Shown: positions 7,429-61,857, numbered from the stretch's first letter. The stretch: DNA of 64,000 nt from Coriobacteriia bacterium (GCA_035687245.1 DASRYH010000028.1:45525-109524); one strand, 5' to 3'. Translations and numbers: made by a program. Notes: generated from the letters alone by a model not told the origin.

Positions 7429-7431
7429 GTG

Positions 7432-11053: not shown

Positions 11054-11088
11054 GTGGGCCGGGCACCCGAATTGGGGTCCCGGCCCAC
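11054..11088 (-). terminator. Hairpin between rplL and rpoB (candidate attenuator/terminator)
   Basis: GTGGGCCGGG...CCCGGCCCAC forms a 10-bp outer stem, with an inner CCC/GGG stem. It is followed on the minus strand by ATTTGTTT. The position matches the classical rplL-rpoB attenuator. Confidence 0.5.
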
Positions 11089-11122
11089 TTCACGACACGA
11101 GCGAAACGCCCGTGTGGCGTAG

Positions 11123-11500: not shown

Positions 11501-11572
11501 TTCTGTCTTCTCCTTCTAGTCACGCGGCTAGGGCATCGTGCCTGCCGCACAGGGGTTCGTGCGGAAGTCGCT

Positions 11573-12094: not shown

Positions 12095-12441
12095 GTACTT
12101 CCCTCCTTCCTTTTCACGCGCACGCCCGGCCTTGCTCTGTCGAGCGCTTAGGTCGGCCGTGCCAATTGCGAAGGGAGGATTCCCGTCGAAATGAACACGG
12201 CCCCCGTTGCCTAGTGAAGGCAGCGAGGGCCGCGATGCAAATTCTCATTTGCCGAACCCTTGCGGGTTCTTGCGACCACCTCGGCGGGCGGGATGAAGCG
12301 CATCCCATTACACCCGAGCACTCCTCGGGAACCGGCTGTCTTCGGCAGCGGATCGTACGCGTATTTGGTATGTCAACGCGGAGGCGTAGTCTGCACGCTC
12401 CGCCGGCGGCTGTCAAGCAGCCGTCACGCTAACCCGAGAGA
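12095..12441 (-). promoter_or_regulatory. rplJL promoter / possible ribosomal-protein L10 leader region
   Basis: 347-nt non-coding gap between rplA and rplJ; its ORFs look non-protein-like. This is where L10-leader autoregulatory RNAs lie in Firmicutes and Actinobacteria. I did not verify the structure. Confidence 0.3.
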
Positions 12442-13149
12442 CTAGCCCTCGAGAAGGTTGCGAGTGATGCCAGAGTCGACCTTGATGCCGGGGCCCATCG
12501 TAGAAGCCACCGTGATCGACTTGATGTACTTGCCCTTGGACGACGAAGGCTTGGCGCGCAGGATCTCGTCGAGCAGAGCTGCGTAGTTCTCCACCAGCTG
12601 CACCGGGGTGAACGAGACGCGTCCCACCGGCACATGGCAGATGCCGAACTTGTCGGCGCGGTACTCGACGCGGCCGGCCTTGAGCTCGCCGACGATGCGG
12701 GTGACGTCCATGGTGACGGTGCCGAGCTTGGGGTTCGGCATCAGACCACGCGGGCCGAGGAGCTTACCGACCTTGCCCACCTTCCCCATCTGGTCCGGCG
12801 TGGCAACGGCGGCGTCGAAGTCGAACCAGCCAGCCTGAATCTTGGCGACGAGGTCGTCACCACCGACGAAGTCGGCGCCAGCAGCCTCGGCCTCGCGGGC
12901 CTTGTCGCCCTCGGCGAAGACGGCAACACGGACGTCTTTGCCGGTACCATGCGGCAGCGACACGGAGCCACGGACCTGCTGGTCCGCCTGGCGGGTGTCG
13001 ATTCCGAGGCGGAAGTGGGCCTCGACGGTCTCGTCGAACTTCGCCGTCGCAGCGTCCTTGGTCAGGGTCATGGCCTCGAGCGGAGTGTAGAGGCGGTCAT
13101 GCTCGACCTTGCTCAGGGCCTCGATGCGGTGCTTTCCAGCCTTGCTCAT
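12442..13149 (-). CDS. rplA: 50S ribosomal protein L1
   Basis: [15 protein letters not shown]...; ATG at 13149 is preceded by AGGAGG. The longest-ORF start at 13197 adds 16 non-conserved residues. Confidence 0.94.
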
Positions 13150-13241
13150 TGCATTCCTCCTGTGGTCGTTAGCGGGCGGATCGAACCGCCCTCCCACTCG
13201 CAGCCGATTTCTTCGGCAGCGTTACTTCCAGTGCGGACTAG

Positions 13242-13667
13242 CTAGTCGACGACCTCGACACCCATGGAGCGGGCGGTGCCGGCGATGATCTTCTTCGCGG
13301 CCTCGATGTCGTTCGCGTTCAGGTCCGGCATCTTGGTCTCGGCGATCTGGCGGAGCTGCTCCTGCGTCACCTGCGCGACCTTGGTGCGGTTCGGGGCAGC
13401 GGAGCCGCTCTCGATGCCCAGCGTCTGCTTGAGCAGAACGGCCGCCGGCGGGGTCTTCATGATGAAGTCGAAGGAGCGGTCCTCATAGACCGAGATCTCG
13501 ACCGGGATGATGGTGCCGTTCTTATCAGCAGTCGCAGCGTTGAACGCCTGGCAGAACTGCATGATGTTGACCTGGTGCTGACCCAGGGCAGGACCGACCG
13601 GCGGAGCCGGGTTCGCCTGACCACCGGGGATCTGGAGCTTGATGAAGCCCACGACTTTCTTAGCCAT
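13242..13667 (-). CDS. rplK: 50S ribosomal protein L11
   Basis: 141-aa [47 protein letters not shown]. Confidence 0.97.
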
Positions 13668-13792
13668 TGTTCGTTCCTGTTCTCACTGCGGCTGCAAGGA
13701 TCTGCACCCGCGTCATTCGTCTCATCTATCCGTTACGGTCGCCGTGAGAAGCTCCCTCCACAAGGGGCACAGCGTACCGGCCGCTAGCACTC

Positions 13793-14323
13793 TTAGACGC
13801 GCGAAACCTGTCCGAACTCCAGCTCAACCGGAGTCTCGCGACCGAAGATCGTGACCATGACCTTGACGGTCGACTTGTCGAGATTGACCTCGGCGATCAC
13901 GCCGTCGAACTCCGCGAACGGACCGGACGTGACCTTCACGGTCTGGCCCTCGGAAAAGTCTGACGTGGTCTTCTGCTTCGCGCCGGCTTCGGTCCGCTTG
14001 GTGATGCGGTTGAACTCATCACGCGAGAGCGGGACCGGCTTGCCCTGGCTACCGACGAAGCCGGTGACACCAGGGGTGTTGCGCACGACGTACCAAGACT
14101 CGTCGTCGAGCTCCATCTGAACAAGGATATAGCCCGGGAAGACCTTCTTCTCAGAGGTGACCCTACGGCCGCCTTCCTTGATGTCGGTCACGGTCTCGGT
14201 GGGGATGCGCACGTCGAAGATCTTCTCCTGCATGCCCATCGACTCGATGCGGTGCAGGAGGTTCGTGCGAACCTTGTTCTCGTACCCGGAGTACGTATGA
14301 ATGACGTACCAGCGCTTGGCCAT
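13793..14323 (-). CDS. nusG: Transcription termination/antitermination factor NusG
   Basis: 176-aa ORF MAKRWYVIHTYSGYENKVRTNL... with a KOW region GQTVKVTSGPFAEFDGVIAEV. Order is secE-nusG-rplK. Confidence 0.96.
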   Translation of the reverse strand: MAKRWYVIHTYSGYENKVRTNLLHRIESMGMQEKIFDVRIPTETVTDIKEGGRRVTSEKKVFPGYILVQMELDDESWYVVRNTPGVTGFVGSQGKPVPLSRDEFNRITKRTEAGAKQKTTSDFSEGQTVKVTSGPFAEFDGVIAEVNLDKSTVKVMVTIFGRETPVELEFGQVSRV

Positions 14324-14325
14324 CG

Positions 14326-14589
14326 CTAGGCGCCGATCTGCCTGATGAGGTGAAGCATCTCAACGACACCCCAGTCGACGATCAGCGTGAACGCGACGAA
14401 GAAGAGCAGTGTCACGATGACGACAACACTGGAGTTCAGCACTTCCTGGCGGTTCGGCCAAACGACGCGGCGCATCTCTGAGCGCACGTCTTTGAAGTAC
14501 TGGCCGAGACGCGCGAAGACGTTCGGCTTGTTGGATGCGGGCTTTGCCTGCTTGGCAGGCTTGCTCACGCTATCGGCACTCGTTGCCAT
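14326..14589 (-). CDS. secE: Preprotein translocase subunit SecE
   Basis: 87-aa ORF with FKDVRSEMRRVVWPNRQEV followed by one TM helix. Its stop is 2 nt before the nusG start. Confidence 0.88.
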   Translation of the reverse strand: MATSADSVSKPAKQAKPASNKPNVFARLGQYFKDVRSEMRRVVWPNRQEVLNSSVVVIVTLLFFVAFTLIVDWGVVEMLHLIRQIGA

Positions 14590-14683
14590 GTCGTGTCATC
14601 CGTTTCGTTCCGGCGATACGTCGACTCGCGACGTCGCCCCTCGTGAAACATCGCGACGCAGCGCGCGCGATGGCTAGAGATTC

Positions 14684-14760
14684 TGGCAGGCCAGGAGGGA
14701 CTCGAACCCCCAACATCCGGTTTTGGAGACCGGCGCTCTACCAATTGGAGCTACTGGCCT
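14684..14760 (-). tRNA. tRNA-Trp (anticodon CCA)
   Basis: The reverse complement reads AGGCCAGTAGCTCCAATTGGTAGAGCGCCGGTCTCCAAAACCGGATGTTGGGGGTTCGAGTCCCTCCTGGCCTGCCA. It has a 7-bp acceptor stem, GTTCGAGTC T-loop, CT-CCA-AA anticodon loop and an encoded CCA. Confidence 0.9.
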
Positions 14761-14785
14761 GTTTCCTTGCCAAAGCCACTCGGTA

Positions 14786-14935
14786 CTAGCGGGTTTCCTT
14801 GTGCACCGTGTGGGTCTTGCACCACTTGCAGTACTTCTTGAACTCGATGCGCTCAGGGTTGTTCTGCTTGTTCTTGTTGGTGGTGTAGTTACGGCGTTTG
14901 CACTCTGTGCACGCCAGCGTCACCAGCGTTCGCAT
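14786..14935 (-). CDS. rpmG: 50S ribosomal protein L33 (Cys4 zinc-ribbon form)
   Basis: Not in the ORF track because it is under 60 aa. My translation: [49 protein letters not shown]. Its position upstream of tRNA-Trp-secE-nusG is classical. Confidence 0.9.
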
Positions 14936-15052
14936 GGGTCCTCCTCAAAGACCGCGCTTGATCCCAAAGGTGGCGTGGGCGCGGTAGGGTACTGTAGCAC
15001 CCTGTTTTCAGCACTGTCAAACCGCAGACCGCCTGCTTGGAGGCGGCGAAAC

Positions 15053-15078
15053 GGGGCCCGACGCAGTCGTCGGACCCC
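15053..15078 (-). terminator. Hairpin downstream of tuf
   Basis: On the minus strand GGGGTCCGACG-ACTG-CGTCGGGCCCC is followed by GTTTCG. It lies 28 nt after the tuf stop. Confidence 0.5.
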
Positions 15079-15105
15079 GCCTTTTCGCACTGTTTGGAAC
15101 TCGAA

Positions 15106-16290
<1,185 letters not shown>

Positions 16291-16432
16291 CAGTCTCCTC
16301 CTTCGGGGACCTCATCGACGATCAGTCGGCCTTTCACGCCGTCTTCCCGTCTCACACACCTGCATCTTATGAAGGTGTCATCTCTACAACTACTGTCCTC
16401 TTGCAGCGCCGCATGCGCGACGCGTAGTGCCG

Positions 16433-16509
16433 TGGTAGCGGTGGCTGGACTCGAACCAGCGACAACTCGGGTATGAACCGAGTGCTCTGACCAACTGAGC
16501 TACACCGCC
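16433..16509 (-). tRNA. tRNA-Met-type (anticodon CAT; elongator Met or lysidine-Ile, not initiator-like)
   Basis: The reverse complement reads GGCGGTGTAGCTCAGTTGGTCAGAGCACTCGGTTCATACCCGAGTTGTCGCTGGTTCGAGTCCAGCCACCGCTACCA. The anticodon stem lacks the three consecutive G:C pairs of initiator tRNAs. Confidence 0.88.
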
Positions 16510-16552
16510 TCGAGACATCCGGCCGCTTAGATCACGGATGTTCGTGAATAGG

Positions 16553-16628
<76 letters not shown>

Positions 16629-16666
16629 ATGATACAAGCACGCACGAGCGCGTGCCGGGTTCGCGA

Positions 16667-16751
16667 TGGTGGGGGCGCATGGATTCGAACCATGGTAGGC
16701 GTAGCCAACGGGTTTACAGCCCGTCCCCTTTAGCCACTCGGGCACACCCCC
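16667..16751 (-). tRNA. tRNA-Tyr (anticodon GTA, long variable arm)
   Basis: The reverse complement reads GGGGGTGTGCCCGAGTGGCTAAAGGGGACGGGCTGTAAACCCGTTGGCTACGCCTACCATGGTTCGAATCCATGCGCCCCCACCA (85 nt). Confidence 0.9.
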
Positions 16752-16923
16752 AGTTGCGAAAAACAAGAGCTACTGTGCGCTTTTCAAGTTGCACGCCGAA
16801 ACAAGCCGTCTCGGCAAAGCGAGGGGGATAGTACGACACCGTCTCCCTGCGTGTCAACGACTGCCACGGTGCCGGGCGTGCCCATACTTTCGTGGGTGAA
16901 CGCGGAAACGTTTCGGTACGGGA

Positions 16924-17337
16924 CTAGCGCCCCAAGCGCTCGTTCGCGACCCTCAGGCGGCGGCTCAGTACTTCGAGCAGCTTGATCGCGATCGACGGGT
17001 GCTTCTCCAGAAGCGACCGGAAGTCCCAGCTGGAGAGCATCAAGCACTGAGTGGCATCGATGGCTCGAATCGTAGCAGAGCGCGGAGCCTGGTCGAGCAG
17101 TGACATCTCGCCGAAGAAGTCCCCGGGGCCGAACGCACCGAGCGACTTGCTGTCGCGCAGAATCTCAACGCGCCCGTCGAGAATCATGTAGAACGCCTGT
17201 CCAGGCGTTCCCTGAGTCACGATTATCTGCCCCGGCTGGAAGAACGCGTCTTGGGCCGCGGTGGCGATCGCCGCGATCTCTTCCGGAGTGCAGCTCGAAA
17301 AGATCGGGACCTTCGTCAGAAACGCTTCATGGGCCAC
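16924..17337 (-). CDS. Stand-alone cyclic-nucleotide-binding (CAP-effector) domain protein
   Basis: 137-aa ORF with the phosphate-binding cassette FGEMSLLDQAPRSATIRA. No output domain follows it. Confidence 0.8.
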   Translation of the reverse strand: MAHEAFLTKVPIFSSCTPEEIAAIATAAQDAFFQPGQIIVTQGTPGQAFYMILDGRVEILRDSKSLGAFGPGDFFGEMSLLDQAPRSATIRAIDATQCLMLSSWDFRSLLEKHPSIAIKLLEVLSRRLRVANERLGR

Positions 17338-17457
17338 TTCCGGTCCTCCCTCATCACGTCGGCGACTGCTAGAGATGGTTGTTAGTCTAGCGCAGACACG
17401 GCGGGTGCCTATCCTTCACAATGAATCGCAGGCAGATGCCGACACAAGGAGAAGCGC

Positions 17458-19002
17458 GTGGCGATTAATCTGAGCCGCCGAAACGACAACCTGCTGCGCT
17501 GGCTTCGCGCTGCACTCATCGCGCTGGCCACCGACGTGGGCCTGGTGGGGCTGCACTTCGCGCCCGCCTGGGGCGCCGCCGCGCTCGCGCTCGTTGCTGG
17601 ACTACTCTCGCTCGCCTCTGTCGATGCCGGGGTGCTCGTGGCGGTCGGTGCGCTCGCGCTTCCGATGCTTGCCACCTCGCCGGTAGTCGGCGTCACCTTC
17701 ATCGTCCTCGCAATCGTCCTGCTCCGCTATGTGGGCTCTAACGGCGGCCAGCCGTTCTTCGTGATCGCGGTGGCGCTGGCCGGAGCCGCGTTCGGCCCCG
17801 TGTGGGCGGCCGCCGCACTTGCGGGCTACATCCTCGGCGCTGCCGAAGGCGCACTCGCTGCCGCACTCGCGGCAGCGATGGTCGAGCTCTTCGGCGTGGT
17901 CGCAGGCAGAGCAGCCATCGGCGCTACCGTCACCGGTGGCGTCGAAGACCTGCTACATCTGGCCAAGATGCCCGAGAGCCTGTTCGCAGGCGGGTGGATC
18001 TCTCAGACGTTCGGCAGCGTGTCATCGCAGACAGTCACCGGAGTGCTGACGAGCTTCGGCAAGACGGAGCACGTCGCACTGCTGATCGCGCAGCCGATAG
18101 TCTGGGCGTGCTGTGCAGTTCTGGCCGGCGTGATCGGGCATCGGCTTCGCTCGAGTAAGTCCGCGCTGGCCTTCCTCGCGCCCGCCGGTGCAGCGCTCCT
18201 GCCCGGAGCGGCCATCGTGGTGCTCGCTCCCCTGTTCGCAGCGCAGGTAGACATCAAGTCCGTAACCATGGCGGCCGTGACTTCGGCTGTGCTCGCGGCC
18301 GCCGTCGCGTGGGTATGGGACCGCGCCTTCCCCGTCGAGGTCCTTCAAGCGGCACCGCGCAAAGGAATGGCTGCCGAAGACGCCGACGTCGACGAACTGC
18401 TCAGCCTTATCGCCACGGCTGAGGAACGGCTCGCGAGCGAACACACTGTGACTGCTACCGTGATGATCACTGACATGAAGTCGTTCTCCCGAATGACCGA
18501 GGAGGACGGCTCGATGATCACCGCAAAGGCGATCCAGCGCCACCGAGACCTGCTCCTGCCAGTCATCGAGAAGCATGGCGGTCACGGCAAGTCGACTGGT
18601 GGCGACGGGCTGGTCGCCGCGTTCTCCAGCAACATCGCCGGTGTCGCCGCCGCCGCTGAGATGCAGCTCGTACTCGACGAGCACAACGTGACCCACGACG
18701 AGCGCGACCTGTCTGTACGCATCGGCCTGGCCGACGGAGAGGTCGTCCTCGACAAGAACGGCCGGCCCTTCATCGGGGCCGCCTTGAACCTCGCAGCTCG
18801 CGTGATGAACCTCGCCGACGGCGGACAGGTCTTTATGAGCGCGAGCGTGGCGAGGTCGTCGAAAGAGCAGTTCGAGCTGCACTCTCATGGCGACTTCGCG
18901 TTGAAGAACATCGCCGAGCCGGTCGAAGTCTTCGAGTTGCTCTGGGCCGAAGGCCAAGAGCCCGTCGATCCGCGAGGCGCGGCCGGCGACCAGCCTGAGT
19001 AG
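17458..19002 (+). CDS. Polytopic membrane protein with C-terminal class III adenylate/guanylate cyclase domain
   Basis: 514-aa ORF, GTG start after AAGGAGAAG. About 300 aa of Ala/Gly/Val-rich TM helices are followed by ATVMITDMKSFSRMTEEDG...GDGLVAAF...RIGLADGEVV...GAALNLAARV. Confidence 0.85.
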   Translation: MAINLSRRNDNLLRWLRAALIALATDVGLVGLHFAPAWGAAALALVAGLLSLASVDAGVLVAVGALALPMLATSPVVGVTFIVLAIVLLRYVGSNGGQPFFVIAVALAGAAFGPVWAAAALAGYILGAAEGALAAALAAAMVELFGVVAGRAAIGATVTGGVEDLLHLAKMPESLFAGGWISQTFGSVSSQTVTGVLTSFGKTEHVALLIAQPIVWACCAVLAGVIGHRLRSSKSALAFLAPAGAALLPGAAIVVLAPLFAAQVDIKSVTMAAVTSAVLAAAVAWVWDRAFPVEVLQAAPRKGMAAEDADVDELLSLIATAEERLASEHTVTATVMITDMKSFSRMTEEDGSMITAKAIQRHRDLLLPVIEKHGGHGKSTGGDGLVAAFSSNIAGVAAAAEMQLVLDEHNVTHDERDLSVRIGLADGEVVLDKNGRPFIGAALNLAARVMNLADGGQVFMSASVARSSKEQFELHSHGDFALKNIAEPVEVFELLWAEGQEPVDPRGAAGDQPE

Positions 19003-19038
19003 CGCCTGAGCCGCCGGCAGACGCCGCCCGAACACGAA

Positions 19039-19069
19039 GCAGGGCCCTCGCCTTTGACGGGGGCCCTGC
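19039..19069 (+). terminator. Intrinsic terminator of the cyclase gene
   Basis: GCAGGGCCC...GGGCCCTGC forms a 9-bp stem followed by TGCATTTTGTT, 37 nt after the stop. Confidence 0.75.
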
Positions 19070-19081
19070 TGCATTTTGTTG

Positions 19082-19157
19082 TGGAGCTGGCGGGGGGACT
19101 CGAACCCCCAACCTACTGATTACAAATCAGTTGCGCTGCCAATTGCGCCACGCCAGC
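19082..19157 (-). tRNA. tRNA-Thr (anticodon TGT)
   Basis: The reverse complement reads GCTGGCGTGGCGCAATTGGCAGCGCAACTGATTTGTAATCAGTAGGTTGGGGGTTCGAGTCCCCCGCCAGCTCCA. Confidence 0.9.
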
Positions 19158-40591: not shown

Positions 40592-42787
40592 CTAGTTCAG
40601 CAGGCCCTTCTTGGCGAGGTTGACGTGGCAGTTCGCGCAGAAGGTCGGCTTGTGGCAGCCGAAGCAGCCATCGGTGCCGTTCTTCTTGACGACGTTCGGG
40701 TGGTAGCGGACCCACGGCTTGTCGGCCGGGGCGCCCTCGTGGTGGCACGAGTTACAGAACGCCGTCTTGTGGCAGTTCGAGCAAGTGGACTTGCTCAGCT
40801 TCTTGTCGGCAAAGCTCTTGGCGTGCGCCCCACCGTTGCCGGCGCCCTTGGCTCCGAAGCCATCGGGGTGCGGCATCTCGAGCTTGTGGCAGCTGCTGCA
40901 GAACTTGGCGTTCGGCAGTGCGGCAACTTCGCCCTTGTGGCAGTAGGTGCAGATCTCGCCATTGTCCTTGTAGAGCTGGACGTGCTTCGCGTCCTTGTTG
41001 CTGAAGTCCCTGATGAACTTGGACTGCTTGTGCGACGCCGGAACGACGTTGCGCTTGTTGTGGCACTTCACGCAGTCGTTCTTGGTGTGGCACTTCTCCA
41101 CACAGCCAGCAGCACCATTCTTGTTGACCGAGCCACCGTGGATGCTGATCCACGACTTGCTGGTCGACGAACCAATGTGGTGGCAGTTGCTGCAGACTTC
41201 CTTGAACTGGTGGCACTTCTTGCACTGGCTCGAGTTCTTCTTGCTGCTCACGTGGTTCGTCTTGAAGTCAGCCGGGTGCGGCATCTCAAGCTTGTGGCAG
41301 CTCTTGCAGAAGGCACCGTTGACGCCGCCAGCGTGGCAGACATCGCAGGCCTCGATCGACTTCTGAGCCTCGACGGCGTGCTTGCCGCTGACCTTCGCCG
41401 GCGTCTTGCCGTAGACGGTCATGGCGCCAGGAGCACCAGGCTTGATCCAGCCAGCCTGCTTGTGGGAGGCCGGGAAGACCTTCTTCGAGGTGTGGCAGTC
41501 GGAGCAGAACTTCGCTTCGTGGCACTCAGCAGTACAGGTCTTGATGCCCTTCTCGGCAACAGCCTTCGGGTGCTGCTTCGCGGTCCACGGCTCGGTCGCG
41601 ACGAACTTGTAGCCGCCGGCCTTGGTGCCGTGGTGGCAGTTGTCGCAGAAGTGCGACTCCTCGTTCTTGCCGTGACACATGATGCACTTCTTCGGGAACT
41701 GCTTCGACATTGCAGGGTGGCCCTGCGCCGGATCGGCAGTCGCAGTCGGCTCCTTGAAGGCGGCGGGGTGCGGCATCTCCATACCGTGGCAGCCGTCGCA
41801 GAACTGCTTCTCTACGTGGCATGTGCCGCAGTAGTAGATCGACTCGACCTTCGGCAGCTCGCCGCCGATAGAGTGCATCTCGTCGCCAGGGTTCTTCTTC
41901 TGCTCTTCGAGCAGCGCCTTGACCTCTTCGCGAGCAACGGGCTTCTCTTCTCCGCCACCGGAGGCATAGGCCTTCTCGGTACCCAGAAGGCTCTGCTCCT
42001 TCTCGGCTGCGCCTTCTTCACCCTCGGCGCTCGCCTCAAGAGCCTTGGCGGCCTCTTCCTTGGCCTCCTTCGCCATCTCGGCGTGGCCCTTGGGGTAGAA
42101 GTCCTTCTCGCGGTGATTCTCGGGCTTCAGTTCGAAGTTCGAGGGGTGGCACGCGCTACAGCGACCAGGAGCCGCTGCGCCGTCCTCAAGACCGTGGCAA
42201 CGGAAGCAAGCGGTCATCGAGGTGAAGACCAAGTGCTTCGTGTTGGGCTGCCCGGTCTTCGGATTCGTAAGCGTGAGCTTGAAGTCCTCGGTGTGGGCGA
42301 TACGGTTGTGGCAGACCGGACAGGCCGCGTTAACCTCCGCATGAACGGCGTGATCGATCTTCACGCCCTCAGTCGGGGTGACCTTGCGGGTCTCCATGCT
42401 GTGACACTGGGTGCACTTGTCGCCCGTCATCGTGAGCGCGACCTCGGACTCCCCGTTGAGCGGGAGGTCGTAGTCGTCACGAACGGTCAGGTACAGCTCA
42501 CCCAAGGCCTCAGCCTTGTGCAGGATGAAGATGACCGGGTTCGCGTTGACCGGCATGTGGCAAGCCATACAGCTTACTTTGGCGTGGGACGAGTGTTCAT
42601 AGGCAATGATCGTGTCGTCCTGAACCTTGTGGCAGGCCTCCGCGCAGAACCAACGAGTCGAAGTCACCCCCAATACGGGAACCATGACCCCGGCAATCAC
42701 CAGGACCGCTACTAGCGCCCAGATGATGTACCGTGGCCGCCGGACCGGATCCTTGAATCCGGCCAGGGAGATCTTCGCCATATTCAT
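40592..42787 (-). CDS. Membrane-anchored multihaem cytochrome c (22 CxxCH + 2 CxxxCH motifs); NapC/NirT-like N-terminal module
   Basis: 731-aa ORF with one N-terminal TM helix (YIIWALVAVLVIAGVMVPVLGV). Motifs counted by eye: CAEACH, CMACH, CTQCH, CPVCH, CFRCH, CSACH, an acidic/Lys linker, then 18 more in three modules. Confidence 0.85.
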   Translation of the reverse strand: MNMAKISLAGFKDPVRRPRYIIWALVAVLVIAGVMVPVLGVTSTRWFCAEACHKVQDDTIIAYEHSSHAKVSCMACHMPVNANPVIFILHKAEALGELYLTVRDDYDLPLNGESEVALTMTGDKCTQCHSMETRKVTPTEGVKIDHAVHAEVNAACPVCHNRIAHTEDFKLTLTNPKTGQPNTKHLVFTSMTACFRCHGLEDGAAAPGRCSACHPSNFELKPENHREKDFYPKGHAEMAKEAKEEAAKALEASAEGEEGAAEKEQSLLGTEKAYASGGGEEKPVAREEVKALLEEQKKNPGDEMHSIGGELPKVESIYYCGTCHVEKQFCDGCHGMEMPHPAAFKEPTATADPAQGHPAMSKQFPKKCIMCHGKNEESHFCDNCHHGTKAGGYKFVATEPWTAKQHPKAVAEKGIKTCTAECHEAKFCSDCHTSKKVFPASHKQAGWIKPGAPGAMTVYGKTPAKVSGKHAVEAQKSIEACDVCHAGGVNGAFCKSCHKLEMPHPADFKTNHVSSKKNSSQCKKCHQFKEVCSNCHHIGSSTSKSWISIHGGSVNKNGAAGCVEKCHTKNDCVKCHNKRNVVPASHKQSKFIRDFSNKDAKHVQLYKDNGEICTYCHKGEVAALPNAKFCSSCHKLEMPHPDGFGAKGAGNGGAHAKSFADKKLSKSTCSNCHKTAFCNSCHHEGAPADKPWVRYHPNVVKKNGTDGCFGCHKPTFCANCHVNLAKKGLLN
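40625..41836 (-). repeat. Three tandem intragenic hexahaem modules (about 110-130 aa each)
   Basis: Each module has the pattern CxxCH-x4-9-FCxxCH(K/G)(L/M)EMPHP ... CxxCH-x4-7-CxxCHH ... Cx2-3CH-x4-CxxCH. Modules 1 and 2 are each followed by V(F/V)PASHKQ. Approximate residues are 320-440, 481-588 and 613-721. Confidence 0.8.
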
Positions 42788-42931: not shown

Positions 42932-44074
42932 TCATCCTGCCACGTCTGAGAGCTCGAGTAAGGCCGTTTCCAAGCGCCCAGCAGCTGCCGAAGACGTGTC
43001 GGAGAGCGTGAGCAACTCGTCTGCGATACCCGACAGCTGCTCCACTTCCCCGGTCTGAAGTCGCGACAGATGCGCTGTTTCGGCGGCTGCCGTTGCGGCA
43101 GTCGAACAGGTGTCGGCGACTTCGGCGAGCTGAGATGCGGTGCGCATCACGATCTCGCGCGACTCATCAACCATGAGGCGCATGCGCTCGGTCGACCCCA
43201 CCAGCGCGACCGCGCCCGACTGGAGTTCGTGGACAACGCGGCTGATTTCGGAGGTCGACTCGGTCACCGACTCCGCGAGATTGCGGATCTCTTCAGCGAC
43301 AACGGCGAATCCGCGGCCCGCGTCGCCCGCGCGCACCGCCTCAATCGAGGCGTTCAGTGCAAGTATCTTCGTCTGCTCGGCGATATCGTCGATGATCTCG
43401 AGCACTCCGCCAATGCGCTGGCCGTCGTAGCCGAATCGCTCAACGCGGTCGGCGGCATCACTCGAGTGGCGACCGATGCTCGCAAGGGTCACCGACGCTT
43501 CATCGATGAGCTGAACGGCGCGGCGGGAGTCTTCTCCGGCCCGCTCCGACGCCTCAAAGGCCTGGCCGGCGTTCTCCAGCACGTTGACCGCATTGTGCGC
43601 GAGTATCTCGGTCTCACGCCTCAGCCGCTCGTTCGTGTTGGCCTGCCGCTTCGTAGCACCTGCGGACTCGTCGGCGGTATGGCACAGTTCAGAAGCCCGC
43701 GCTCGCAGCATGCCGGAGCGCGACTGTGATTCGTCGAGGGTCACGCGCGCGAGATCGAACATGCGGCCAGCGCGCTGGAGCGCACGTTCGTCTCCGGTGG
43801 CGGCCGGGGCGCGCATTCTAAGCCGGGTCTCGGCGTCCTCCAGGACGCTCGCGCAGGCGTCTTCGCCGATTCTGTCACCGAACCATGCGACGGCCAGACC
43901 AGCACCCGCACCCATGCCTACGAACAACGTCGCGAGGACGATCGAGGCAACGACACTGCGCGGCGTCGTCAGCAGGCTCGCAAAGACCCACATCGCGACG
44001 CCTGCGGCAACGCCGATGCCGACTGCGTTGAAACGCAGCCGACCGCGCTCTTGCCACCAGTTGCTTGCAGTCAC
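42932..44074 (-). CDS. Methyl-accepting chemotaxis-type signalling protein with two TM helices and almost no outside loop
   Basis: C-terminal MCP signalling domain ([36 protein letters not shown]). I place the start at GTG 44074 (GAAGGG upstream). The longest ORF (to 44620) would run through the divergent promoter and the opposite-strand genes. Confidence 0.72.
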
Positions 44075-44192
44075 GTACCGACCCTTCAGGACACGGTGCG
44101 ATCTCAGCTTCAGCCGCGCGCGGGCACCCTTCCGTACCGCGACCCTTGATAAGACACTACGGTAGGGGTATCGGCCAATTACTTGCACGTTA

Positions 44193-44210
44193 TATACCCC
44201 TTGGGGTATA
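44193..44210. promoter_or_regulatory. Perfect palindrome TATACCCC-TT-GGGGTATA (operator candidate)
   Basis: 8-bp perfect inverted arms, 42 nt upstream of ATG 44252, in the divergent MCP / ferredoxin-operon intergenic region. Confidence 0.55.
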
Positions 44211-44251
44211 GTCAGCGAGCTCGGTTCGTCAAAGGAAGGAACTCCCGCATC

Positions 44252-44455
44252 ATGTCTGTCGTCACTATCGACACCGCCCGCTGCGATCGCTCGCCCGGTT
44301 GCCCGTCTCGCCGAATCTGCCCGACAGGCGCTATTGTGCCGATCGACGGCGGTGCCTACCCCGGTGCGAACGGGTACACGGTCATCGAAGAGAAGTGCTC
44401 CGGTTGTGCTGTCTGCGTGCGTGTGTGCGCGGGTGGCGCGTGCCGGATCGGATAG
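44252..44455 (+). CDS. Small Cys-rich 4Fe-4S ferredoxin-like protein
   Basis: [29 protein letters not shown]...[25 protein letters not shown] after AAGGAAGG. The second cluster motif is CxxCxxCxxxC. Confidence 0.6.
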
Positions 44456-44467
44456 AAGGAGCAGTTG

Positions 44468-44812
44468 ATGCCTAAGCCCGTCATCGTCGAGGTCTTCGAC
44501 GTTCCCTCCGCCTCCGACTGCTTCTCGGGTGGATGAGGCCCGTCCTGGTCTCCGGAGGAGATCACGGCCATCGTCCGCACCGAGCTTGAGCGCCGCTATG
44601 GTGACGACGCCCAAGTCCACTACTACAACACGCAGGATGACTCGGTTCGGCAGCAGTACGCCGCGCTGATCACTGAGATCGACGAGCGCGGCCTGCTCTA
44701 CCCCGTCACCGTCGTCGACGGCGTGCCCGTCTACGACGGCGCCGTGAGCTACCCGGCCATCATGCGCGCGGTCAACAACAAGCTGCTTGAACAGGAACAG
44801 ACCGCCAAGTAG
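44468..44812 (+). CDS. Candidate selenoprotein: ArsD-like thioredoxin-fold protein with in-frame TGA (codon 23)
   Basis: Not in the ORF track. ATG 44468 lies 6 nt after GAAGGAG. My translation: [114 protein letters not shown]. The TGA is at 44534-44536, and the frame stays open for 91 further codons with protein-like sequence. Confidence 0.6.
44537..44569 (+). promoter_or_regulatory. Candidate bacterial SECIS hairpin
   Basis: Starts directly after the TGA. Lower stem GGCC/GGCC (44537-40 with 44566-69). Upper 8-bp stem TGGTCTCC/GGAGATCA (44546-53 with 44557-64). G-rich apical loop GGA about 17-20 nt after UGA. Confidence 0.5.
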
Positions 44813-44839: not shown

Positions 44840-45985
44840 ATGCCGAGAGTCTCGCTTTCACGCTGCGCCGACTACTCCCCCGCACTCGTTGCCTCTTCGC
44901 TTGCCGAAGTGCTCGAGCCGCTGGGCGGTATGTCGGCCTTCGTGTCTCCCGGGCAGCGCGTACTGCTCAAGGTGAACCTGCTGTCGCGCGCGCTGCCTGA
45001 AAGGGCGGTCACCACCCACCCGGAGGTCGTACGCGCCCTTATCCGCGAAGTGAGGGCCTGTGGGGGCATACCCACAGTGGGTGACAGTCCCGGCGGCCCG
45101 AACAGTGTCGGCATGGTGAAGCGGGTGTGGGCGGACAGCGGTATCGGCAGTGTCTGCGCCGAAGAGAACGTGGAGCTGGTGCTCTTCGACGATGACGTCC
45201 TGCGCGTGCCCGCTCCTGACGCAACCCTCTACGGCTCCTTCAGCTTGGGACGCGCCGTCGTCGAGACAGACGTGCTCATCTGCGTGCCGAAGTTCAAGAC
45301 GCACGGCTTCATGATGTTCACGGGCGCGGTGAAGAACCTCTTCGGCTGCATACCGGGCCTTGAGAAGGCGCAGTACCACATCAAGGTGCCGGAGCGTGAC
45401 GACTTCGCCGACATGCTTCTCGACCTCATGCTCGCCTGCAAACCAGCGCTTTCTGTAATGGATGCAGTCGTCGGCATGGAGGGTGAGGGTCCCGCCGGGG
45501 GCAAGCCGAAGGCCGTTGGCGCGCTCATCGCTTCGGCGGACGCATGTGCGCTGGACCTGGTCGCATCATCGATGGCCGGCCTGGCGCCAGACGAGGTCTA
45601 CACGGTGAAGATGGCCGCGAAGCGCGGTATGTGCACAGACGATGTCGATGCCGTTGAGATCGCCGGTGCCGACTGGCGCGATCTTGCGCCCGACAGCTTC
45701 GAACTCCCCGCGGTGGACCTGTCCCGCAAGATGCCGCCGTGGCTGGGGAACCGGCTGCGCTCTTGGCTGACCGCCAAGCCGGTGCTGGAGAACAAGCCCG
45801 GCTGCACTCGCTGCAAGACCTGCCAAGACGTGTGCCCGGTCGATGCGATCGTAGTGACTGAAGATGGCCCGCAGTTCGACCGCGCCAAGTGCATCCGCTG
45901 CTACTGCTGCCAGGAGCTGTGTCCGCCGCAGGTCATCGGGCTGTCGGTGCCGCTTGTGGCCCGCGCGCTCTCCAAGCGCCGCTAG
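44840..45985 (+). CDS. DUF362-domain protein with C-terminal 2x[4Fe-4S] ferredoxin domain
   Basis: 381-aa ORF. N-terminal DUF362-like part (VLLKVNLLS...HPEVVRALI...GDSPGG). C-terminus [12 protein letters not shown]...[12 protein letters not shown]. Confidence 0.75.
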
Positions 45986-57136: not shown

Positions 57137-58447
57137 CTACTTGTCGTGGCAGCGCTCGCACACGCCGCGGTTGTCGGCACGGAGCAGAGCACTGGTGCCC
57201 TGGAGGCCGGCGGTTGCGGGATCGTCGTCCTTGTCAGGATCCACGCCAGCGATACCGTCACGCACGGGAACCCAAGTTCCTTCGGCGTTCTGGGTAAGGG
57301 AGGCAGCGGCCCAACCGTTCATGACGGCGGCAGAACCGTGAGCGTAGTGGCAGGTGAGGCAGCCAACCTGATTCTGGCGATTCGAGGCAGCGCCAGGAGT
57401 GACCTCCAGCGGCACGTGCTGGTCGAGGTTGCCATCAGCCTGAGCTGCAACCTGCAGGACGTCATCGCCCTGAACGAGCGTGATGTCGACCGGGTGACGG
57501 TGGCGAGGCTGCGAGCCGACAAGGCCAGCGCCCTCGTTCGTACCGTAGTCGTAGTTGCCGGTCTGGTTGTCGTACTGCTCGTGGCACGCAGCACACCAGG
57601 TCGACAGGGAGCCGACGCCGCCAACATAGGGGTTATCCATGCTGGAACGGATCTGCGAGCTACCCGAGGTGTAGTTCGGGACGTAGGCCTGCATCTGAGC
57701 CTGGCCGTCAGCGTGCTTCAGCCAACCGTTGTCCGAGTACGGGTAGTTGGTCTCAGTCGAGTAGACCATACCGTTCGGGGTGCCGTCGGGGTTGTAGCCA
57801 CCGACTGCGGTGTTGTTGACCGAGTCCTTCAGGAGGCGGTAGTTCGAGCTGCCGTGAGGATCGTGGCAGCTGGTGCAGGTCAGGTACAGCGAGTTGCCGG
57901 TCGTGGTGTTGCCAGCGCCCCACAGGATGCCCGTCTTCTCCATGGAGTGCGTGGAGGTGACGCCTGTGAGTGCCGGAGCCGCGTCGACTTCCCACTCGCC
58001 CAGCGTGCCCTTGTACATCGTCGAGAAACCGCCGCCGTTCAGCGGAGCGCCGAACGTGGAGCTCGTGACGTACGCGGTCGTGACGCCATCGTTGGTCGGG
58101 CCAACCTGGCCAGCGTAGCTGGAGGGGCCGCCATCGAAGATGCCCTCGACAACGTTCGTGGATGCGCCAGGAGCGTTGTCGCCGTGGCAAGCGTCACAGA
58201 ACTCCTGCATGGTGGCGGCGTCGCCGACCAGCAGGGCAGACGGGTTGTCTGCAGGGTCCCAGCCCGGAGGAGTGATCCTCGGGGTGAACGTCACGGACGA
58301 GAACGAGCTGTGAGCGCGGTGACAACCGGCGCAGGAGTCCGTGTCATCGATGTATCCGCCGTGCGGACCGAAGTTCGCGTACGCGGAGCCAACGACGGCG
58401 AGGGACAGCGCCAATACGAGCGTAAGTACTAGAACGAAACGCTTCAA
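57137..58447 (-). CDS. Secreted hexahaem cytochrome c, OmcS-like motif pattern
   Basis: TTG start at 58447 (RBS GGAGGTG, 17 nt after the large-subunit stop) gives signal peptide MKRFVLVLTLVLALSLAVVGSAYA-N. Six CxxCH motifs: CAGCHRAH, CDACH, CTSCHDPHG, WCAACH, CLTCHYAHGS, CERCHDK*. Confidence 0.85.
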   Translation of the reverse strand: MKRFVLVLTLVLALSLAVVGSAYANFGPHGGYIDDTDSCAGCHRAHSSFSSVTFTPRITPPGWDPADNPSALLVGDAATMQEFCDACHGDNAPGASTNVVEGIFDGGPSSYAGQVGPTNDGVTTAYVTSSTFGAPLNGGGFSTMYKGTLGEWEVDAAPALTGVTSTHSMEKTGILWGAGNTTTGNSLYLTCTSCHDPHGSSNYRLLKDSVNNTAVGGYNPDGTPNGMVYSTETNYPYSDNGWLKHADGQAQMQAYVPNYTSGSSQIRSSMDNPYVGGVGSLSTWCAACHEQYDNQTGNYDYGTNEGAGLVGSQPRHRHPVDITLVQGDDVLQVAAQADGNLDQHVPLEVTPGAASNRQNQVGCLTCHYAHGSAAVMNGWAAASLTQNAEGTWVPVRDGIAGVDPDKDDDPATAGLQGTSALLRADNRGVCERCHDK

Positions 58448-58464
58448 ATCTCTCACCTCCGTCG

Positions 58465-60537
58465 TTAGTGGATCGCGCAAGCGATGCAGGGGTCAAAGGA
58501 CTGGGCGATACGAGCGACCTCGACGCCACCGACGGTGGGGATGGACGCGCCACCCTGACCGGTGATGGTCTTGGTGTAAGTCGCACCCGTCGCGAACGGG
58601 GCACCGATGCATGCCTTCTCGATTGCACCATTCTGGCCAAGAACGTCCTTCGGCGAACCGTTCCACGTGGTGGGAACGATGCACTGATAGGCGGTGATCT
58701 TGCCGTTGTTGATGGTGATCTGGTGCATCAGGGAGCCACGCGGAGCCTGGCCTGCGCCCCAACCCTTCTTGATGCCGGTCGGGATCGACTTGTTGGCCCA
58801 GGTGGAACCAACGGTGTCGTTGGCGTTGACGCCAGCACCCGTGTAGGACTTGAGCTGGTTGATCCAGCTGCTGCTACCGAAGGACAGCGTGCCCAGAGGA
58901 GTCACGCTACCGTCGGACTTGCTGATCTTGCCAATCATGCGCTGGACGAGCACGAAGGACTGCAGGGCGCGAGCGCGCAGGCGGTCCATCGTGGACAGGC
59001 CGGCCTGGATGCCGAGGACCCAAGTCTGGATCGCGGCGACAAGACCCATGCCGTCGGCGCCGAACGGATACGCAACCGGGTCGACTCCGAAGAGGAACTT
59101 GCCCGAGTTCACGATGCCGTTGACGATCGTCGGAGCGATGATGTCGAGGTCGAGACCGCCAGCCTTGACGTAGAGGTCATAGCCCGAGACGGTAGCCGAC
59201 GTCGGGATGCTGGTGGCGAGATCGACGCCATCCTGGAAGTAGCCGTTGACGAACATGTCAGCCATGGGACCGACCTCGCAGGGCTTGCCAGCCCAGCGCG
59301 GGGCCTTCATGTAGCTGTAGCCGTCGTCACGAGCCGGCTTGGTGCGAGTGATGTCACCAGGATAGGTGGCCTCGGCACCAGCGAACGGACGAGATGCGGT
59401 CGTCGCATAGACGGCAGCGTCGTCGACGTACGGCACGTAGCGCGAGTTGGAGATGTCCTCAGTGAGGTTCGTCGGGACAGAGAGCGCGCCCGACAGGAAC
59501 TTGCTGATGACTTCGCCCTTATTCGCGACCGTGAAGTTGTACACGCCTGCAGGAGCACCAAGCTCGAGCACGCCGCCCTTGATGGCGAGATCGTCGTTGA
59601 GCTCAGGGAACTGACCCCAGACGAGGAAGCGGCCAAGACCAGCGCCGAAGCCGACGGGATCGCCGGGGGTGTAGAAGAAGCTGCGGGTCTTGTTGTGATC
59701 GTTGTCGAAGCCCGGATACAGGAAGCCGAGGACCAGAGCGATCGGCACGTACTCGTTGACGATGAACTTGCCGACTTCCTGGATGATCTCCTCGTACTTG
59801 TTGCAACGCTGAGTCAGGTTCTCCGTGCCATCGTTGGTGACGCCGCCACCGACGAAGCAGGAGGTCATCGGCATACGACCGGCGAACAGCGCGCCAGCCT
59901 CGAAGGTGAGGCGGCGAATGCGCAGTGCGCGAACGTAGCTGATGATGACCGCGTCCCAGATCTGCATGGTAGCCGTGTTGGCAACCGGCACAACGCCAGC
60001 GGTAGCGCTGACGGTGTCAGCCGAGAACGAGCTGCGCAGAACGGGGTTGTAGAAGGCTTCCGCGAAATACGGAGTCCAAGGCGGCATGTTCGGGCCCTGA
60101 ACGTAGCTCGGGGCAGCCAGGTGATAGAAGTGCGTGATGCTCGACATCAGGAACTCGGCCGAAAGGACGAGGTTACGGATGAGCAGAGCCTTCGGCGGAA
60201 TGCCGTAGGGGCTGCCAACCGCTTCGTTCAGAGTCGAGAACGTGATGTGAGAGCGGCTGTAGCCGAGAACAGAGTCGACCGCGTACGTCGAGGTCAGACC
60301 GTGCGGGACCGGGCAGACACCGCAGATGCGCTGCACGAAAGTGATCGCATCGTTGGCGCCACGGCCAAGCAGGAAGTTCTCGAAACCACGCCACAGGTTA
60401 CCGTGGGCGTTGGCGTCCTTGATGAAACCGTCAGAGCCAACTCGGACCTTGACTCCCAGGTGACCCTCGATACGAGAGACCGGGTCGACCTCGCGGTCCG
60501 TCGAGCCAGCGACGGTGTTGAGATTCCATACACTCAT
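58465..60537 (-). CDS. [NiFe]-hydrogenase large subunit
   Basis: 690-aa ORF with N-terminal motif RICGVCPVPH. The C-terminal DPCIACAIH is followed directly by the stop. Confidence 0.95.
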   Translation of the reverse strand: MSVWNLNTVAGSTDREVDPVSRIEGHLGVKVRVGSDGFIKDANAHGNLWRGFENFLLGRGANDAITFVQRICGVCPVPHGLTSTYAVDSVLGYSRSHITFSTLNEAVGSPYGIPPKALLIRNLVLSAEFLMSSITHFYHLAAPSYVQGPNMPPWTPYFAEAFYNPVLRSSFSADTVSATAGVVPVANTATMQIWDAVIISYVRALRIRRLTFEAGALFAGRMPMTSCFVGGGVTNDGTENLTQRCNKYEEIIQEVGKFIVNEYVPIALVLGFLYPGFDNDHNKTRSFFYTPGDPVGFGAGLGRFLVWGQFPELNDDLAIKGGVLELGAPAGVYNFTVANKGEVISKFLSGALSVPTNLTEDISNSRYVPYVDDAAVYATTASRPFAGAEATYPGDITRTKPARDDGYSYMKAPRWAGKPCEVGPMADMFVNGYFQDGVDLATSIPTSATVSGYDLYVKAGGLDLDIIAPTIVNGIVNSGKFLFGVDPVAYPFGADGMGLVAAIQTWVLGIQAGLSTMDRLRARALQSFVLVQRMIGKISKSDGSVTPLGTLSFGSSSWINQLKSYTGAGVNANDTVGSTWANKSIPTGIKKGWGAGQAPRGSLMHQITINNGKITAYQCIVPTTWNGSPKDVLGQNGAIEKACIGAPFATGATYTKTITGQGGASIPTVGGVEVARIAQSFDPCIACAIH

Positions 60538-60561
60538 GTGGTTTTGCCTCCTCTCTTCTTC

Positions 60562-61857
60562 TTAGCGCTTCACGAAGGGCACGAACGCGTCCGGATAGCC
60601 CTTCTCGGTGCATGCCATGCAGGGGTAGCCAGCGACGGTGCAGTGACCGCCGACGCCGTTCTTGTTCAGACCGGACAGCGTACCCGCGTTCTCCGGCTGC
60701 TGGTTGTTCCAACCATGCTTGCCGCAGAGAGAGCTAGCCGTGATGCCCTTGCAGCCGATCTTCTGCAGGCAGCCCGGATCGCCCGGCTTGAGGGCGTAGA
60801 TGCCCTTGGTGTAGCTCGGGTAGCGCGGACAGAAAGCTCCGTGAACCGTACCCGGGTAGACGCGCTTGACGCGACGACCGGCGTCGAGCTCGATGAGGTC
60901 GGTGCCGGCGAGCTTCAGCATGACCATGACGGTGGTGAGAACGAACCACCACGGGTTGGTCGGGCAGCCCGGGACATTGATGACCTTGGCAGCTGCGGCG
61001 TTGACGTCCGCAACAAAGGCGGCCTTCAGCGGATCAGCGTCAGCGTACTGCGACAGGAAGTCGTAAGCACCCTGGGCGCCGGTCTGCGACAGAGCGGGAT
61101 CGAAGCCCCCGAGGCCCTTCTTTGCGGTCGTGGCGCTGATCTGGGGCTTGCAGCCCGGATAGCCACCGTAGCAAGCGCACTGGCCGATCGGGAGGATCGC
61201 AGCGCACTCAGGCATGGCGGCGAGGTCGGCGACGACCTCCGGCATGTCCTGCTCGTGCGAACCGTCGTCGAAGACGCCGATGGAGCACCACGGCGTCGTG
61301 CCGGTGTTGCCCCACGCGCCACCCTGACGGGCATCCTGCATGGCACCCTCGATGACGAGCACGAACGGATCGTTGCTGCCGGTCGAGTAGGTGTCACGGA
61401 AGTCCTGGAGCCACTTGGCGGCGAGGTCGCCCGCCGGGCCCATGACGGTCTCGTGATACTGAAGGTCGATGACGTCGATGACGACGTCAGCGATGTTGAC
61501 CAGAGCACCGTCGGCACGAAGACCGCCGGTGAGGGTCGGGAAAGCGCCGCCAAGGGCGTTGGTTACGCCGGCAAGCCCGAGGGCGGTACCGGTGTCGATC
61601 CCAGCGACGGTAGCGTTGCTGTCATAGCGGAACGGCTTGCCACTGGCATCCTCGAGGATACCCAGCAGAGACGTGGAGCAGCCCGTGCACTCCGCGCCGT
61701 GAATCCATACGACCTTGGGCTTGCCGAAGGTTCCGCCGTAAGCGTTCGAATTGCCCGCAAACGCATCGGCGATCTTAGTTACCTCGACCTGGCTAAAGCC
61801 AACGGCGGTAGCCAGCGCTCCCAAGCGCGTTACGAACTGACGCCTGGTAATGGCCAT
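60562..61857 (-). CDS. [NiFe]-hydrogenase small subunit with twin-arginine signal
   Basis: 431-aa ORF with MAITRRQFVTRLGALATAVGFS..., WIHGAECTGCS (proximal cluster) and the C-terminal GYPCMACTEKGYPD. There is no C-terminal TM helix. Confidence 0.95.
   Translation of the reverse strand: MAITRRQFVTRLGALATAVGFSQVEVTKIADAFAGNSNAYGGTFGKPKVVWIHGAECTGCSTSLLGILEDASGKPFRYDSNATVAGIDTGTALGLAGVTNALGGAFPTLTGGLRADGALVNIADVVIDVIDLQYHETVMGPAGDLAAKWLQDFRDTYSTGSNDPFVLVIEGAMQDARQGGAWGNTGTTPWCSIGVFDDGSHEQDMPEVVADLAAMPECAAILPIGQCACYGGYPGCKPQISATTAKKGLGGFDPALSQTGAQGAYDFLSQYADADPLKAAFVADVNAAAAKVINVPGCPTNPWWFVLTTVMVMLKLAGTDLIELDAGRRVKRVYPGTVHGAFCPRYPSYTKGIYALKPGDPGCLQKIGCKGITASSLCGKHGWNNQQPENAGTLSGLNKNGVGGHCTVAGYPCMACTEKGYPDAFVPFVKR

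Follow-up and report, generated by a model that had tools for sequence, protein, structure and literature searches.

A small Coriobacteriia gene with a conserved in-frame UGA codon and a conserved downstream hairpin very probably encodes a selenocysteine protein related to YuzD and ArsD

A small gene with a single in-frame UGA codon

The stretch of DNA analysed here (the window) comprises 64,000 nucleotides (nt) from a Coriobacteriia bacterium (GCA_035687245.1, DASRYH010000028.1:45525-109524) and carries on its plus strand, at 44468-44812, a small but complete gene of 113 residues plus stop that very probably encodes a selenocysteine (Sec) protein. The gene was examined through its translation, Pfam profiles, 80 orthologous loci, the ratio of nonsynonymous to synonymous substitution rates (dN/dS) and AlphaFold and Foldseek analyses. 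A preliminary description, made from the sequence of the window, had proposed a hidden reading frame interrupted by one TGA, and direct reading of the sequence confirmed its elements: a Shine-Dalgarno-like GAAGGAG (44455-44461) with the ATG 6 nt further on, 114 codons from the ATG at 44468 to a terminal TAG (44810-44812), and one internal stop, the TGA of codon 23 (44534-44536), which is the proposed Sec codon. The TAG of the upstream gene (44453-44455) lies 12 nt before the ATG. The codon for Cys18 (44519-44521), the proposed resolving or partner cysteine, precedes the TGA with four residues between the two, and a hairpin resembling a selenocysteine insertion sequence (SECIS), UGGUCUCC-GGA-GGAGAUCA (44546-44564, plus strand), starts 9 nt after the UGA and has its apical loop 17 nt after it.

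TGA is an ordinary stop codon elsewhere in the window, as the preliminary description had pointed out for greA: it ends 11 of the 52 confidently called genes, greA included. Because it terminates these genes and also 32 of 81 orthologues of the gene itself (see below), a non-standard genetic code (code 4 or 25) was rejected. When the whole window was scanned for in-frame TGA codons with coding signal on both sides, the TGA at 44534 alone was strong; the remaining four hits had a weaker signal and lay antisense to real genes.

The UGA codon is conserved and the gene is translated through it

In a scan for the gene across one genome per GTDB species, 93 stretches matched; the 80 loci retained all come from Coriobacteriia, Anaerosomatales or 'Actinomycetota' metagenome-assembled genomes and form, together with the window gene, a set of 81 orthologues. 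The TGA column was identical in all 80 species genomes (81/81 with the window), a Cys codon was found there in none, and the context of the TGA followed the pattern C-[FWY]-[SG]-G-G-TGA-G-P-[ST]-W-[ST]-P-E-E across the 80 loci. The terminal stops varied among the 81 orthologues (TAG in 45, TGA in 32 and TAA in 4), whereas the internal stop was TGA in 81/81, a constancy far in excess of chance. The upstream Cys, which is Cys18 in the window protein, was likewise present in every orthologue, and the C-x4-U spacing was kept in 80 of the 81. The same in-frame TGA was also found in 40 distant homologues, namely four that had been called with Trp (W) at this position and all 36 stretches matched by a DNA pattern in a metagenome collection (both described below).

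Purifying selection acts on both sides of the TGA, with a dN/dS of 0.25 (at a dS of about 1.2) for the 14 codons before it and of 0.21 downstream. A start codon (ATG in 70, GTG in 10 and TTG in 1) was located 18-28 codons upstream of the TGA in 81/81 orthologues, and a Shine-Dalgarno-like core lay 4-18 nt from the inferred start in 76 of them. An internal start is not conserved: in the window gene, the first ATG after the TGA comes only close to the C-terminus, in agreement with the earlier statement that no alternative start follows the TGA, and codon +17 encodes Met in just 31 of the 81 orthologues. The conserved TGA, the selection on its two sides and the start signals therefore exclude a strain-specific nonsense mutation, a read error and an arrangement of two separate genes, explanations that the preliminary description had itself raised; the TGA recurs in 80 independent species assemblies. 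Thus, 44468-44812 is one real gene, translated through its UGA codon.

A conserved SECIS-like hairpin follows the UGA codon

A two-part hairpin with a G-rich apical loop had been proposed to start immediately after the UGA. RNAalifold, run on this region, returned a single conserved consensus hairpin of 8 base pairs with its stem at 44546-44553/44557-44564. In a set of 85 sequences, 99.3% of the stem cells were paired, compared with 37-73% when the partner columns were slid, and two of the stem pairs showed compensatory changes. The apical part of the proposed structure was thus upheld, with covariation in distant homologues, whereas its lower GGCC/GGCC stem, which was paired in 57.9% of the cells only, is not conserved and was rejected. 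The window hairpin has an unremarkable single-sequence fold energy (z = -1.4); the evidence for it, drawn from aligned sequences, is comparative.

Synonymous sites are frozen at codons +4 to +9 (TGG TCT CCG GAG GAG ATC), the Pro codon excepted, and dS was 0 in most pairwise comparisons of this block. Ser +5 is encoded by TCT in 80/80 loci; the nearby Ser +3 is spread over six codons, and the equally invariant Ser of YDGAVSYP is TCT in only 2 of the 80. Distantly related TGA-containing homologues, whose source organisms have a GC content of 41-61%, retain the hairpin at an unchanged distance from the UGA, and the stem substitutions seen in them maintain base pairing (C-G becomes U-A in locus L083, and G-C becomes A-U in L084). 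A metagenome collection was then scanned with a DNA pattern in which nothing but the core of the stem was fixed, and 36 stretches were retrieved, all 36 of which are homologous genes with an in-frame TGA (29 distinct sequences). At the stem positions left free by the pattern, a change of UGG to CAA (Trp to Gln) was always accompanied in these loci (L089-L124) by the synonymous change of AUC to AUU. This coupling was seen in 10 of the 29 distinct variants, with no exception; it turns G-C/G-U into A-U/A-U and keeps two stem pairs, at the equivalents of window positions 44547-44548 and 44562-44563. The apical loop reads GGA, GGC or AGGAA and starts 17 nt after the UGA.

Since the Trp-to-Gln change is always paired with a stem-restoring synonymous Ile change, the RNA can be seen to constrain the protein. 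The shared S-x-E-E-I-T motif looks, from these sequences, as if it were dictated by RNA, and the gene would provide a clean example of an RNA element that constrains a protein sequence. This hairpin is missing from P0127 and P0136, which are distant Cys homologues, and in the close Cys orthologue P0121 the hairpin is decayed and without the GG loop; the hairpin therefore shows the behaviour expected of a SECIS.

The canonical SECIS printed in the BSepDB paper (PMC13326102) is GGUCC-GGC-GGACC, with its loop 17 nt after the UGA. The hairpin described here equals this printed element in geometry, being a stem-loop just 3' of the UGA, with a G/C-rich upper stem and an apical loop that begins with GG at 17 nt. 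Unlike the canonical element, it has no conserved lower stem, is unusually invariant in more than 100 sequences and appears to dictate W/Q-S-x-E-E-I-T.

Homologues carry Cys or an in-frame TGA and are annotated as truncated fragments

Among 5.8 billion predicted proteins, 352 relatives were detected, of which the best 120 were listed. Among the matches listed, nearly all are 73-86 residues long and start after the TGA position, and their source names are 'DUF1462 family protein' (NCBI), 'disulfide oxidoreductase YuzD' (JGI) or 'hypothetical protein'. P0002 (NCBI, 83 residues, 99% identical) starts at the ATC codon of the window gene (Ile33; window 44564-44812). One call, P0001, is full-length and reads Trp where the gene has TGA, and four other W-containing calls (P0126, P0131, P0133 and P0137) proved to have an in-frame TGA at the DNA level; the W-bearing calls come from short JGI/ENA contigs. 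Public gene calls for the family are systematically wrong, and the active site is lost in the truncated fragments. More than 100 public genomes and metagenomes annotate just such a fragment, the correction of which would add the family to the bacterial selenoproteome.

Homologues with Cys at the UGA column were sought among 1.84 billion cluster representatives, and seven full-length relatives with Cys at this column were found (P0121, P0127, P0136, P0140, P0142, P0149 and P0150), together with four further forms that have W at the TGA position. P0121 carries the motif CCSSGCCGP, and the spacing is C-x4-C in P0127 and P0136. When 23 diverse members were aligned (A5), the Sec/Cys column was the sole invariant column; nearly invariant were the Cys upstream of it, the Gly just after it and Pro79, the proline of YPVT/LPxV. 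The conserved UGA, the coding sequence on either side of it, the almost constant spacing and the Cys homologues at the U column all bear out the originally proposed selenoprotein with a C-x4-U motif. P0121 (L082 505-870, also present on a JGI contig) is a Cys orthologue, CCSSGCCGPAWSSEEIT, located in a ferredoxin/DUF2085/SAM_HAT neighbourhood. This neighbourhood is the same, and with its weakened hairpin, which has lost the GG loop, P0121 looks like a recent Sec-to-Cys replacement.

The protein family lies between YuzD and ArsD

For profile scoring, U was replaced by C in the window protein. It matched Pfam DUF1462/YuzD (PF07315) with 29.5 bits, above the cut-off of 25; the match covers residues 26-102 only and excludes the active site. 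PF07315 was matched at E <= 0.01 by 19 of 23 family members. Against Pfam ArsD (PF06953), the window protein scored 18 bits (cut-off 27), and it matched no NCBIfam model (release 20). Its relatives scored at most 21.4 bits against NCBIfam ArsD (NF033727), for which the cut-off is 90. Further models in release 20, for thioredoxin-like selenoproteins and for ArsD-related proteins (NF047660, NF047871), all stayed below their cut-offs.

The AlphaFold model of P0001, which has W at the Sec position, shows a thioredoxin-like topology with a predicted local distance difference test score (pLDDT) of 77 and with strands (E) and helices (H) at E19-25, H43-61, E62-68, E94-97, E100-104 and H109-125. In this predicted beta-alpha-beta ... 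beta-beta-alpha topology, the active site follows strand 1 and a conserved proline precedes strand 3. The top 50 Foldseek matches were YuzD, ArsD and thioredoxins; the best PDB match was 1xg8 (E = 5e-4), and the ArsD structures 3ktb, 3kgk and 3mwh were other top matches. The profile of the 23 members matched 1xg8 with E = 2e-6, the CASC motif of which has its second Cys in the U column. It also matched the ArsD-family structure 3ktb: in the MCCpTGLCG of 3ktb, the upstream Cys falls on the latter Cys of the CC pair and Sec on the Cys that comes next. We take these two to be ArsD Cys13 and Cys18 in the numbering of the preliminary description, and the ArsD alignment given there was thereby corroborated. 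Because the profile aligns the active site with both 1xg8 and 3ktb, the family, with its motif C-x4-U-G-P, is placed by sequence comparison between DUF1462/YuzD and ArsD. The protein had been described as having an ArsD-like thioredoxin fold: the fold stands, in view of the Foldseek matches to 1xg8 and the three ArsD structures; by HMM score, the protein belongs to DUF1462, which passes its cut-off, and not to ArsD, which fails.

DUF1462/YuzD, represented by 1xg8 (S. aureus SA0798), is the sole family whose curated hidden Markov model (HMM) threshold is reached, and it is also the best structural and profile-to-PDB match. It resembles the family described here in size, in its thioredoxin-like fold and in the proline before strand 3; it differs in that 1xg8 has C-x2-C where C-x4-U is found here, with a two-residue insertion or gap and Sec at the second position. 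ArsD shares the fold (Foldseek matches 2, 4, 8, 9, 19, 36 and 44), the C-x4-C-G spacing in a flexible loop after strand 1 and an LP...DG motif, and P0121 has the full CCxxGxCGP motif. Unlike ArsD, the family has sub-cut-off scores, no ars operon or ArsA partner, and Sec in place of Cys18. Of the ArsD triad Cys12-Cys13-Cys18, the equivalents of Cys13 and Cys18 (Sec) are present in the window protein, and Cys12 is absent (D-C-F); this first triad Cys is present in P0121 and missing from most family members.

A third comparison is with the CxxU/UxxC thioredoxin-fold selenoproteins (thioredoxin, glutaredoxin, SelW-like, Prx-like and NF047660), which appear in the family table of PMC5029168. With these, the window protein has in common its small size, the Cys/Sec pair, the existence of Cys homologues and a putative SECIS right after the UGA. 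In contrast to them, its spacing is C-x4-U-G-P, it belongs to a separate sequence family, and its Sec form is nearly universal in Coriobacteriia (80/80), with one Cys orthologue found. NF047660 ('HUIPC motif thioredoxin-like (seleno)protein') had one match, to a metagenomic subfamily representative, with 17 bits against a cut-off of 105.

A ferredoxin-like gene precedes the gene in most loci

Directly upstream of the window gene lies a 4Fe-4S ferredoxin-like gene (44252-44455, plus strand, 67 residues, Pfam Fer4 families), the stop codon of which is located 12 nt before the start of the selenoprotein gene. A ferredoxin homologue was found immediately upstream in 73 of the 80 loci; one also precedes the Cys orthologue P0121, and a Fer4 protein is encoded upstream of the Cys homologue P0136. 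Judged by this gene order, the ferredoxin-like gene is nearly always the co-transcribed partner. Downstream, at a distance of 27 nt, lies a gene coding for a DUF362 protein with a C-terminal 2x[4Fe-4S] domain (44840-45985, plus strand; 198 bits for Pfam DUF362, plus Fer4), which is probably the third gene of the operon. The neighbours in the window comprise the ferredoxin, DUF362, a chemoreceptor, a multihaem cytochrome and RidA-like and EamA proteins, and the wider synteny across the 80 loci includes multihaem cytochrome, RidA-like, EamA and DUF2085 genes. This wider synteny reflects vertical descent, and no arsenic- or selenium-related genes were found in it. Genes for arsA, arsB, arsR or metal efflux adjoin the family gene neither in the window nor in the 80 loci or the metagenome contigs.

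Other subfamilies have other neighbours, many of them redox proteins. Thioredoxin-reductase-like flavoproteins adjoin the gene in L093, L099, L103 and L105, and glutaredoxin/PDO-like proteins do so in L099 and L114. In locus L105 (oriented, 4110-6490), the TGA-containing member belongs to a cluster with a DUF302 gene, a gene for a thioredoxin-reductase-like flavoprotein and one in which the same kind of ferredoxin domain is fused to a thioredoxin carrying WCAPCK. In view of these redox neighbours in several subfamilies, the context is read as one of thiol/selenol redox. DUF302 also adjoins the family member in L104.

In seven contigs (L095, L097, L106, L115, L116, L117 and L124), a ThiI/MnmA-like PP-loop ATPase is encoded directly upstream. 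It has ThiI/MnmA-like and NFACT-R_2 domains, is on the same strand and ends about 180-235 nt before the TGA, and the subfamily linked to it shows the motif FGSRxLDSCSGG-U-GPSWSLEEIT. The ATPase always precedes this subfamily, which suggests a connection with tRNA thiolation or some comparable step of sulfur transfer. The context of the distant TGA-containing member in L081 (771-1046 and 1-183) is unlike all others: a CsoR/RcnR-type metal- or persulfide-sensing repressor is encoded on one side and a CxxC zinc-ribbon protein, FmdB-like by eye, on the other.

On the minus strand of the window, a 562-codon open reading frame (42932-44620) overlaps both the selenoprotein and the ferredoxin genes. 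Only its C-terminal part resembles a methyl-accepting chemotaxis signalling domain (by motif, judged by eye), and the part that extends it N-terminally over 44150-44620 is apparently an artefact of high GC content.

Probable selenocysteine insertion, proposed function and alternatives

We consider it very likely that the inserted residue is Sec and the gene a selenoprotein gene. The UGA at codon 23 would be decoded as Sec during translation, and the hairpin within the W-S-P-E-E-I-T codons would act as the SECIS, tethering SelB with Sec-tRNA(Sec) at the ribosome. Cys18 and Sec23 (C-x4-U-G-P) are predicted by the model to lie in a flexible loop that leads from strand 1 to helix 1, and Pro79 (YPVT/LPxV) is predicted to occupy the position of the thioredoxin-fold cis-proline. 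The Cys18/Sec23 pair may cycle between selenol/thiol and selenenylsulfide, the protein being a small redox carrier, and electrons may be exchanged with the upstream 4Fe-4S ferredoxin and, in this lineage, also with the DUF362 iron-sulfur protein. Sequence and gene order suggest this redox chemistry and the ferredoxin as electron partner, a proposal towards which we lean slightly. The explanation as a whole, a UGA-decoded Sec in a redox carrier that works with ferredoxin, is likely.

Several observations weigh against this explanation. The genes selA, selB, selC and selD were not seen in the 748 kb searched (window, 80 loci and metagenome loci), ARAGORN detected no tRNA-Sec in the window or in any locus, and tblastn searches of the 748 kb with E. 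coli SelA, SelB and SelD queries matched EF-Tu only. No Rfam SECIS model matched the window at gathering or permissive thresholds; Rfam models cover the diversity of bacterial SECIS elements poorly. Covariation was nil in the Coriobacteriia set, where the stem is too conserved, and was observed in distant homologues only, and part of the covarying set had been retrieved with the pattern that fixes the stem core. In addition, the active-site loop was modelled with low confidence (AlphaFold pLDDT < 50 at residues 35-37), and the DUF362 gene is located downstream in just 35 of the 80 loci.

In the supplement to PMC5029168, Eggerthella lenta, Slackia heliotrinireducens and other cultured Coriobacteriia are given three pluses and 3-7 selenoproteins; the column headers are not displayed, and on our reading the three pluses would stand for SelD, SelA and SelB. 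No statement on selenium metabolism was found in a paper on the first environmental Coriobacteriia isolates. If the explanation given above is true, selenocysteine would be used in environmental Coriobacteriia (Anaerosomatales/OPB41 and relatives).

Among the alternatives, the one that fares best keeps the selenoprotein and gives it an ArsD-like role, in which the loop would bind As(III), Sb(III), Hg, Cu(I) or a persulfide or selenide and hand it to a partner; we regard this as unlikely. The motif has the spacing of ArsD Cys13-x4-Cys18-Gly, the ligand residues of ArsD lie in a flexible loop, and CCSSGCCGP of P0121 resembles CCSTGVCGP, which the preliminary description gave for ArsD. Ten of the 23 members show sub-threshold to weak Pfam ArsD matches (best E = 1.5e-5), and NCBIfam ArsD is the best, though weak, match for five of eight subfamily representatives. 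An ArsD-like role would also be in line with the CsoR/RcnR-type sensor next to the distant member in L081 and with the PP-loop sulfur-transfer ATPase upstream of one subfamily. However, HMM scores are everywhere below the curated cut-offs, the first Cys of the triad is absent in most members, ars and metal-efflux neighbours are lacking in the window, the 80 loci and the metagenome contigs, and the recurrent neighbours are redox proteins (ferredoxin, thioredoxin-reductase-like, glutaredoxin-like and thioredoxin). We therefore prefer to read the protein as a Cys/Sec redox protein linked to ferredoxin, and not as an arsenic chaperone.

It is very improbable that the UGA is read through without Sec, the hairpin slowing the ribosome or blocking release factor 2 while a near-cognate tRNA (Trp, Cys or Arg) decodes the codon. 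It is known that a downstream structure can stimulate the read-through of a stop codon, and Sec machinery was not among the genes seen in the 748 kb; yet the recoded column is the catalytic position and is occupied by Cys in all Cys homologues, and the hairpin has the spacing and the GG apical loop of a canonical SelB-binding SECIS. A sense codon would serve such a protein better, yet none of 121 TGA-form genes has switched to one within the Coriobacteriia set. Moreover, relatives from the class are scored as having Sec machinery in the supplement to PMC5029168. That the TGA is a genuine stop, with a pseudogene, an assembly error or a 22-residue peptide followed by an independently initiated C-terminal domain, has a negligible probability: public gene calls do begin after the TGA (73-86 residues among the matches listed), but the same TGA is shared by 80 independent species assemblies and by 40 contigs from metagenomes, the 14 codons before it evolve under purifying selection in this very frame, no conserved start or Shine-Dalgarno sequence follows the TGA and the calls begin at non-homologous positions, including ATC, the internal stop is never TAA or TAG, and the truncated product would, according to the model, be without strand 1 and the whole active-site loop.

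A text search for literature linking DUF1462, YuzD, ArsD or DUF362 with selenoproteins found nothing relevant. The family list of PMC5029168 contains no such entry and includes vague names ('Distant Trx-like', 'New Trx-like protein'), one of which may already cover it. It is fairly likely that the selenoprotein family is undescribed, and it is probably a new family of a well-known kind. If the ferredoxin-linked Sec protein proposed here is real, the YuzD family, which is uncharacterised, and its connection with ArsD would gain an assigned catalytic residue and a candidate electron donor. A broader view, which we find somewhat doubtful, is that the family is an undescribed ArsD/YuzD branch that depends almost obligately on Sec. 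On this view, it may form, with its dedicated small ferredoxin, which in some lineages is fused to thioredoxin or adjoins thioredoxin-reductase-like enzymes, a new reductase module for selenols and thiols that is driven by ferredoxin, both in anaerobic Coriobacteriia and in other bacteria of sediments; the motif S-x-E-E-I-T would have been imposed on the whole family by the SECIS.

Other features of the window

Upstream of the genes described above, the window codes on the minus strand for a 731-residue multihaem c-type cytochrome (40592-42787), which is syntenic in 70 of the 80 loci. Another multihaem cytochrome and a [NiFe] hydrogenase are encoded at 57137-61857 (minus strand). The hydrogenase was considered as a second selenoprotein and rejected, its large subunit having Cys (DPCIACAIH). 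In the 10 kb that adjoin the window on its right (L125), only cytochromes were seen, and these are likewise multihaem. The left part of the window (1-19157) has the look of the conserved region of rpoB/rpoC, tuf and ribosomal-protein genes and holds six tRNA genes, the proteins being recognised by eye from the sizes and N-termini of their reading frames; this ordinary content shows that the window is chromosomal.

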